Numbered from the stretch's first letter, positions 36,066-36,717 are shown. The stretch is DNA of 64,000 nucleotides from a virus (IMGVR_UViG_3300043177_000122:1-64000); one strand, 5' to 3'. Program-made: numbers and translations. Notes: a model not told the origin generated them from the letters alone.

Positions 36066-36395
36066 ATGAGCTTACCTTGGTCTCGAAATATGAAGCTGGA
36101 TCCTGGGACATTTGGAGGATCTCCTGCATGTCATGTTCTAGTTGATATGATGAATAACGATGTAATCCCTGTACAAGAGAAACATCGTGTATTGTCATTT
36201 ATTAATAGTGCCATTATACATTTCCAGGCCCTCTCAGATATAAAAAGTTATGGTATCCGTTCTTACGCAATGAATCTAATGAGAGATGATTTGTTCGCTA
36301 AAATTGATCGGATGGCTTATCCAGAGAAGTTTAATTCACACCTGAAAAACGTGTTGACTCACCATCTCAGGCGATACTTGAATGGAGCAATCTAG
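36066..36395 (+). CDS. hypothetical protein
   Basis: ORF downstream of the promoter. Confidence 0.6.
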   Translation: MSLPWSRNMKLDPGTFGGSPACHVLVDMMNNDVIPVQEKHRVLSFINSAIIHFQALSDIKSYGIRSYAMNLMRDDLFAKIDRMAYPEKFNSHLKNVLTHHLRRYLNGAI

Positions 36396-36717
36396 ACAAT
36401 CGCTCCGTAAGGAGAGGAAAGTCGGAGCTACACAGGACAATCTGCTGGCTAACGGCCAGGCGTAGTGATACGACGGAAAGTGCAACAGAAAATAAACCGC
36501 CCGCAATGGTAAGGGTGAAATGGCAGTGTAAGAGACTACCGCATTTATAGTGATATAAATGGCAAGGTAAACCCCAGATGTAGCAAGCTAAACAGAGAGT
36601 GACTTGTCCGGTCAATACTCTCGGGTTAGTGCTGGAGCAGCTAAGCAATTAGTTGCCAAGATTAATGATTGTCTCGATTAATAGACAGGACTCCGCTTAT
36701 AGGATTACTCCATTCAA
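36378..36717 (+). ncRNA. rnpB: RNase P RNA, bacterial type A
   Basis: P1 TTGAATGGAG/CTCCATTCAA; GAGGAAAGTCGGAGC; GGAAAGTGCAACAGAAA; AGGGTGAAA; GGTAAACCCC; ACAGGACTCCGCTTA with covarying P4. Confidence 0.93.

Follow-up and report, generated by a model that had tools for sequence, protein, structure and literature searches.

The window, i.e. the whole stretch of 64 kb that was analyzed, contains the gene for a genuine, full-size RNase P RNA of bacterial class A, located on phage DNA. RNase P is an RNA enzyme which trims new tRNAs by removing the 5' leaders of their precursors, and its RNA is one of the few ribozymes common to cellular life. By every testable criterion the RNA of the window is a member of the family RF00010, and it is predicted to be active. 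Most probably it represents a working phage rnpB by which the pre-tRNAs of the phage itself are matured with the help of the RnpA protein of the host, a reading in which we infer expression, catalysis, substrates and partner from the sequence. The RNA itself belongs to a known family; what is new is the phage setting of a full-size RNA and the conserved module that it forms with a small ORF.

The RNA was identified by Rfam cmscan, which gave RNaseP_bact_a (RF00010) at positions 36384-36715 (+) as the sole such match in the window. The score of 270.8 bits (gathering score 100; E 2.8e-87) was the best of all families of clan CL00002 for this RNA, and the alignment spanned positions 1-367 of the 367 positions of the model without truncation. 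An initial annotation of the window had placed an RNase P RNA at 36378-36717 and had proposed an Rfam scan for RNaseP_bact_a. Both concern the same object, the ends determined by cmscan differing by 6 nt and 2 nt, and the full-length match at 270.8 bits confirmed the assignment. The elements of the RNA are as follows:

36384..36715, + strand: RNase P RNA, bacterial class A, 332 nt, 46% G+C (RF00010)
GAGGA from 36414, + strand: J3/4 GAGGAAAGUC, ahead of the P4 5' strand (RF00010 alignment)
36419..36427, + strand: P4 5' strand AAGUCGGAG, i.e. AAG-U(bulge)-CGGAG (alignment)
36435..36438, + strand: 5' strand of the P6 pseudoknot, GGAC, pairing with GUCC in loop L17
36485..36520, + strand: core of the specificity domain with J11/12 ACAGAAAAUAAACC, a short P12 with GCAA loop and J12/13 GGUAAGGGUGAAA
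J5/15, + strand: GCAAG, matching the consensus
36606..36609, + strand: 3' strand of the P6 pseudoknot, GUCC, in the P17 loop
36623..36626, + strand: J16/15 GGGU, within CGGGUU (36622-36627); consensus CGGGU
36659..36667, + strand: J18/2 AGAUUAAUG; consensus AGAUGAAUG (alignment)
36691..36698, + strand: P4 3' strand CUCCGCUU, inside J2/4-P4 ACAGGACUCCGCUUA (36685-36699) (alignment)

The statement of the initial annotation that all type-A hallmarks are present was borne out by the alignment to the model, which comprised the class A helices together with the conserved joining regions. The aligned helices are P1, P2, a short P3, P5, P7-P11, a short P12, P13, P14, P15-P17 and P18. P12 is capped by GCAA, and the loops L14 and L18 consist of GUGA and GCAA, respectively. 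In the joining regions the upper-case consensus was matched throughout, save two swapped P4 pairs and one base of J2/4, the latter being variable (G/A) among the phage copies. Non-standard pairs of the window copy are a C.A in P1 and a C.A in P13. The specificity domain has been retained, with P7-P14 intact in an RNA of 332 nt. Within this domain J11/12 and J12/13 serve for the recognition of the T-loop; ACAGAAAAUAAACC and GGUAAGGGUGAAA kept all upper-case consensus positions and are invariant in the viral copies. In bacterial class A RNAs the GGU of J16/15 pairs with the 3' CCA of the pre-tRNA, and the GGGU found here was invariant in all seven aligned viral copies.

With the M1 RNA (rnpB) of E. 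coli the phage RNA shares the P4 and P6 pseudoknots, P13/P14, P18 with GNRA loops, the GGU of J16/15, the conserved joining regions and the whole secondary structure. It differs from M1 RNA in being phage-encoded and compact (332 nt; short P3 and P12), in the exchange of two P4 pairs, which some bacteria show as well, and in the overlap of P1 with a protein gene whose stop codon falls within this helix. A cognate rnpA was not found in the record.

Related copies were detected on 12 other viral or metagenomic contigs of 10-511 kb, most of them in the same neighbourhood. The first six were found by pattern scans of IMG/VR and six more were reached through the protein encoded upstream of the RNA (see below); the records of the relatives are 2-67% complete. 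The contigs are:

L003, 267 kb: 90% identity to the window RNA (319 aligned nt)
L129, 52 kb: 79% identity to the window RNA (293 aligned nt)
L127, 268 kb: 74.5% identity to the window RNA (318 aligned nt)
L126, 10 kb: 74% identity to the window RNA (330 aligned nt)
L128, 63 kb: 76% identity to the window RNA (201 aligned nt)
L131, 69 kb: 78% identity to the window RNA (178 aligned nt)
L168, 481-kb contig: RF00010 at 272.5 bits, reached via the upstream protein
L170-L174, metagenome contigs of 511, 496, 341, 380 and 34 kb: RF00010 at 255-302 bits, reached via the upstream protein

The first six copies of this list matched RF00010 over its full length with 258-308 bits. The copies differ in P12, which carries insertions of approximately 150 nt in L128 (1002-1492) and 100 nt in L173 (2839-3279), and an extended P12 is common to L168 (2319-2682) and L170 (2819-3183).

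Comparison of the copies indicated that the RNA is selected for its structure. For six viral copies, evaluated on the RNAalifold consensus structure plus P4, 97.5% of the pair cells were standard and double changes occurred in 50 of the 95 pairs. When the 3' partner was slid by 1-3 columns, pairing fell to 34-41%, and none of 500 shuffles reached the observed values. In the same set helices 13-17 covary, and P6 (GGAC/GUCC in the window copy) consists of four standard pairs in five of the six copies. L129 exhibits CAAC/GUUG, i.e. two double changes. Extension to 11 copies disclosed compensatory double changes at 55 of 86 predicted pairs. Since the two pseudoknots P4 and P6 and seventeen helices still stay paired, the RNA does not appear to be a decaying passenger gene.

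The order of genes on the contigs is an HNH gene, variable genes, the small ORF, the RNase P RNA, sometimes a SIMPL gene, an RNA ligase gene, and then shared genes and tRNAs. A maximum-likelihood tree was calculated from 88 RNase P RNAs, with a bacterial sample in which carriers of the P4 variant are over-represented. The copies of the window, L003, L128, L129, L126 and L127 formed a clade with an SH-aLRT of 97 and a stem of 0.57 changes per site; L131 joined this clade without support. By blastn the phage copies matched the window copy with 205-432 bits and the sampled bacterial copies with at most 110 bits. A host signal did not emerge from these RNA searches, in which Clostridium copies reached at most 110 bits and 301 genomes of the phylum of a Chitinophagales MAG at most 98 bits. 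The data indicate that the RNA has been passed on vertically within a lineage of huge phages and does not go back to repeated recent capture or contamination.

A search of 50,697 phage records of GenBank did not find a true homologue of either the RNA or the 109-aa upstream protein; the best match inspected was a host flank, and other weak matches were unannotated faecal metagenome records. The host flank belongs to a record named 'Acinetobacter phage MD-2021a' (CAKLQF020000022.1, 43356-51538), which was rejected as it contains host chromosome with an integrase gene, coaD, fdx, an unannotated rnpB and a tRNA-Met gene. A 25-kb IMG/VR contig (L130) revealed two RF00010 matches near its two ends, at 311-658 (272 bits) and, weakly, at 12978-13349 (115 bits). 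This pattern resembles that of a prophage which has inserted into rnpB and duplicated the attachment site.

The window represents the initial 64 kb of an IMG/VR virus record that comprises 358,993 bp and is an estimated 83% complete. Genes for a large terminase (phrog_675, 1.2e-57) and for a portal protein (phrog_16240, 3.6e-50) lie at 206-210 kb of this record; the terminase shares no more than 27% identity with its counterpart in any cultured phage. The RNA gene resides 36 kb inside the contig in a neighbourhood common to other huge-phage contigs. It is surrounded by phage-typical genes for an HNH endonuclease, an OmpA-domain protein, a SIMPL/DUF541 protein and an Rnl2-type RNA ligase; further neighbours encode a phrog_6660 protein and an ADP-ribosylglycohydrolase. 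Directly downstream of the RNA lie:

36759..37451, + strand: gene for the SIMPL/DUF541 protein (PF04402 at 1.5e-16)
37448..38131, + strand: gene for the Rnl2-type RNA ligase (PF09414 at 3.4e-07; phrog_548 at 3.5e-11)

The SIMPL gene is located between the RNA and the ligase gene in the window phage, L003 and L170. The ligase gene is separated from the RNA by zero or one called gene, and homologues adjoin the RNA in L126, L127, L129 and L170-L173. This conserved adjacency suggests an islet for the maturation and repair of tRNAs.

As presumed substrates of the ribozyme, 57 tRNA genes were identified on the record by ARAGORN and Rfam, all of them on the + strand:

20360..57167, + strand: 38 of the 57 tRNA genes, presumed substrates (ARAGORN, Rfam)
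G000:C1:89470-146835: tRNA genes beyond the window

Encoded CCA and a U at position -1 are the canonical marks of bacterial RNase P substrates. A 3' CCA is encoded by 52 of the tRNA genes, and three more have CCA within 4 nt. At position -1 a T is present in 39 of the 57 genes, often as AT or AAT, in a genome with approximately 39% G+C. Many neighbouring tRNA genes are only 3-10 nt apart, and in such closely spaced arrays a single cut by RNase P yields a 5' end as well as a near-mature 3' end. The records carrying the RNA proved to be rich in tRNAs wherever these were counted (57, approximately 62, 50, 27, 29 and 28, and four in the 10-kb fragment). On the 68.7-kb contig L131 the RNA (1980-2486) begins 12 nt past the CCA of one tRNA and ends 8 nt ahead of the next one, so that it would be released by tRNA processing itself. 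Two adjacent tRNAs of the window's record (G000:C1:144353-144509) have a CUA anticodon, which reads amber codons.

Attempts were also made to find the protein subunit. In six-frame searches the Pfam family Ribonuclease_P (PF00825) was not matched in the window, in the whole record of 358,993 bp or in five related records (records 12-83% complete), whereas the same search gave matches in 10 of 14 control genomes. This agrees with the earlier observation that no rnpA is seen in the window. A gene for a protein-only RNase P of the HARP type (PIN_5) was likewise not found in the record. RNase P RNAs and proteins of bacteria are interchangeable between species. Because of this interchangeability and the failure to find a phage rnpA, the simplest model is that the RnpA of the host is the partner, and such a dependence is plausible. 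A listing of rnpB exists for glaucophyte plastid genomes (PMC6330054). Like rnpB of plastids and cyanelles, the phage RNA would be a subunit encoded by one genome that obtains its protein partner from another. Organelles, however, are permanent residents with a co-evolved nuclear partner, whereas the phage RNA must use whatever RnpA the host provides.

From these data we propose the following course of events. The RNA and the phage tRNAs would be transcribed from the same strand. Probably the RNA makes up the 3' portion of the small upstream gene's mRNA and would be excised from this shared transcript. A convincing promoter or terminator was not found on either side of the RNA; the closest promoter-like sequence is located ahead of the preceding ORF, and the 75 nt upstream of the RNA are not conserved as a promoter. 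The released RNA would fold into the class A architecture, in which a specificity domain accompanies a catalytic domain containing the P4 and P6 pseudoknots, and would most likely join the RnpA protein of the host, as no phage rnpA was found. The GGU of J16/15 would bind the CCA end of the pre-tRNAs, and the 5' leaders would be cut off the 57 densely arrayed phage pre-tRNAs. In this way RNase P capacity could be raised or secured during the massive production of tRNA precursors by the phage. The host already has RNase P, and an extra RNA would be useful only if RnpA is not limiting.

The small gene upstream of the RNA encodes a protein whose family comprises about 107 clusters at 90% identity, on contigs of up to 511 kb:

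36066..36395, + strand: gene for a basic orphan protein of 109 aa (ORF; family of about 107 clusters, no Pfam match)

We regard this predicted ORF as a real gene. Its end, GGA GCA ATC TAG, makes up the first 12 nt of the RNA, i.e. the 5' strand of P1, so that the stop codon lies inside P1. A transcript would consequently be either translated to the stop codon or matured into the ribozyme, since 5' maturation of the RNA would destroy the mRNA of the ORF. The overlap could thus couple the translation of the protein to the maturation of the ribozyme. In all nine loci with the protein, an RF00010 RNA was found directly downstream, starting from 29 nt before to 18 nt after the stop codon; the proteins of the other loci are 39-78% identical to that of the window. 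Four records with the RNA (G003, G004, G005 and G006, one of them 67% complete and the others 2-14%) did not yield a member of the family, and in L126 and L128 a different ORF is located upstream of the RNA. Members of the family are basic (median pI 9.6, median net charge +6) and share the invariant residues T15, F16, G17, N30, L43 and V96 and a conserved N-terminal segment, PGTFGG..ACH. An AlphaFold (AF2) model with a pLDDT of 89.3 showed an N-terminal coil of 19 residues followed by four helices. The predicted fold is thus all-alpha, unlike the alpha-beta folds of RnpA or Pop5. Searches of Pfam, PHROGs and the ESM Atlas did not give an informative match. Foldseek against the PDB disclosed no match at E <=0.001, and VIA-align wide gave a best Z of 7.6 to generic helical bundles. 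A PDB profile search found nothing below E 0.2, and a single-sequence locus search did not find any match either.

The tight association raised the question of whether the phage encodes its own partner, used instead of or besides host RnpA, i.e. whether the four-helix protein is a new protein cofactor of RNase P or a factor for its assembly or maturation. The nine loci in which a full RF00010 RNA abuts or overlaps the gene would agree with this idea, as would the size of the family, its basic character, the confident model with the conserved N-terminal segment, and a protein size near that of RnpA. On the other hand, the family is missing from four records bearing the RNA and replaced by another ORF in L126 and L128, neither structure nor sequence searches gave a significant match to the all-alpha protein, and the whole region is syntenic in the lineage, so that adjacency alone is weak evidence. 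The ORF may simply be a gene whose transcript carries the RNA, and we consider a role as a partner rather unlikely. If it were true, these huge phages would supply an entire RNase P holoenzyme whose protein is unrelated to RnpA. The RNA could also be directed against the host, as a decoy that soaks up RnpA or competes for pre-tRNAs and thereby redirects or stops the maturation of host tRNAs. Any holoenzyme would have to take the host protein, as no phage rnpA was found, and the remodelling of host translation by huge phages is known (PMC7162821). Yet a protein sponge needs neither the catalytic core nor both pseudoknots, the specificity domain and the GGU, all of which have been kept under covariation, and the RNA co-occurs with large sets of phage tRNAs. 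We therefore judge a decoy function to be very improbable and prefer a working ribozyme for the phage's own tRNAs.

The initial annotation had described the P4 helix as GTCGGAG/CTCCG and as a compensatory change. This description was correct: compared to the consensus GUCCGGG/CCCGG, C-G was replaced by G-C and G-C by A-U with the pairing maintained, while the AAG and the bulged U are unchanged. With CUCCGCUU seven standard pairs are formed, and all seven exist in each of six aligned copies. Two of them covary, one being CG in three copies and GC in three, the other AU in three, GC in two and CG in one. At the four variable P4 positions, seven versions occurred in 13 phage copies, six of them fully paired:

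GGAG/CUCC: five copies
GGCG/CGCC: among the 13 phage copies
CGGG/CCCG (canonical): three copies (L126, L127, L173)
CGAG/CUCG: among the 13 phage copies
CGUG/CACG: among the 13 phage copies
GGAA/UUCC: L172
GGAA/CUCC: L174, where the eighth, flanking position holds one A.C

When one genome per bacterial species was scanned, the exact motif (GAGGAAAGUCGGAGC..CA.AGG.CA) turned up in at least 120 species; among the matches listed, the carriers of GUCGGAG included numerous Clostridium and Syntrophomonadaceae, besides scattered MAGs from other phyla. The further claim that the change indicates selection on function holds insofar as pairing is selected; a special meaning is not supported in view of the bacterial species and the seven phage versions, which rather point to ordinary, neutral covariation at two tolerant pairs that is not specific to phages. 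A phage-specific adaptation of GUCGGAG/CUCCG, by which catalysis would be tuned to atypical tRNAs or permuted Y RNAs, is scarcely credible, even though both changed pairs sit within the catalytic helix. The identical motif is widespread in bacteria, phages with the canonical CCGGG/CCCGG have the common gene neighbourhood and, in the L127 record, 50 tRNAs, and the metal-binding AAG-U bulge is unaltered. Nothing points to the proposed tuning, as the tRNA genes bear the canonical marks, CCA and U at -1. Finally, the RNA might be host DNA, brought in by an assembly chimera or left as a prophage flank or att remnant of a host rnpB. Where small IMG/VR contigs contain a canonical rnpB, it mostly lies at a contig end, and the GenBank 'phage' record with a match turned out to be a host flank beside an integrase gene. 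The RNA of the window, in contrast, is full-length and not a fragment, is located well within a contig of 359 kb that also has genes for a terminase and a portal protein, and is flanked by genes of phage type (HNH, RNA ligase, tRNAs). Moreover, most of the 12 other contigs, derived from numerous samples, have the RNA in a syntenic position, and the phage copies are monophyletic and distant from the sampled bacterial ones. An origin from host DNA is already contradicted by these observations and has virtually no probability left; the possibility, named in the initial annotation, that the contig is host chromosome is equally at odds with the terminase, the portal protein and 57 tRNA genes on the same strand.

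In full-text literature searches we found no published description of a virus-encoded RNase P RNA. RNase P is not mentioned in the study of huge phages by Al-Shayeb et al. 2020 (PMC7162821), and Lui et al. 2021 found megaphages with only tRNAs and a tmRNA (PMC8172020). The phage RNA resembles the tRNA arrays, tmRNA and translation genes described there in being a host-like part of translation and RNA processing in phages of more than 200 kb with dozens of tRNAs; it differs in that an RNase P RNA is not mentioned in either paper (PMC7162821, PMC8172020). The autonomy of huge phages would thus reach from tRNAs and tmRNA to the processing of tRNAs. The system also offers a natural test of the interchangeability of the subunits, with an RNA of the phage and a protein of the host, a compact class A variant of 332 nt to work with, and an orphan protein family as a concrete candidate partner. 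For pipelines detecting viruses, an RNase P RNA gene on a contig is not proof of cellular origin. The closest relative of the window's record, the syntenic 267-kb contig L003 with approximately 62 tRNAs (G001; IMGVR_UViG_3300010938_000951), is classed as 'provirus' in IMG/VR, and its host-like RNA genes may be the cause of this classification.
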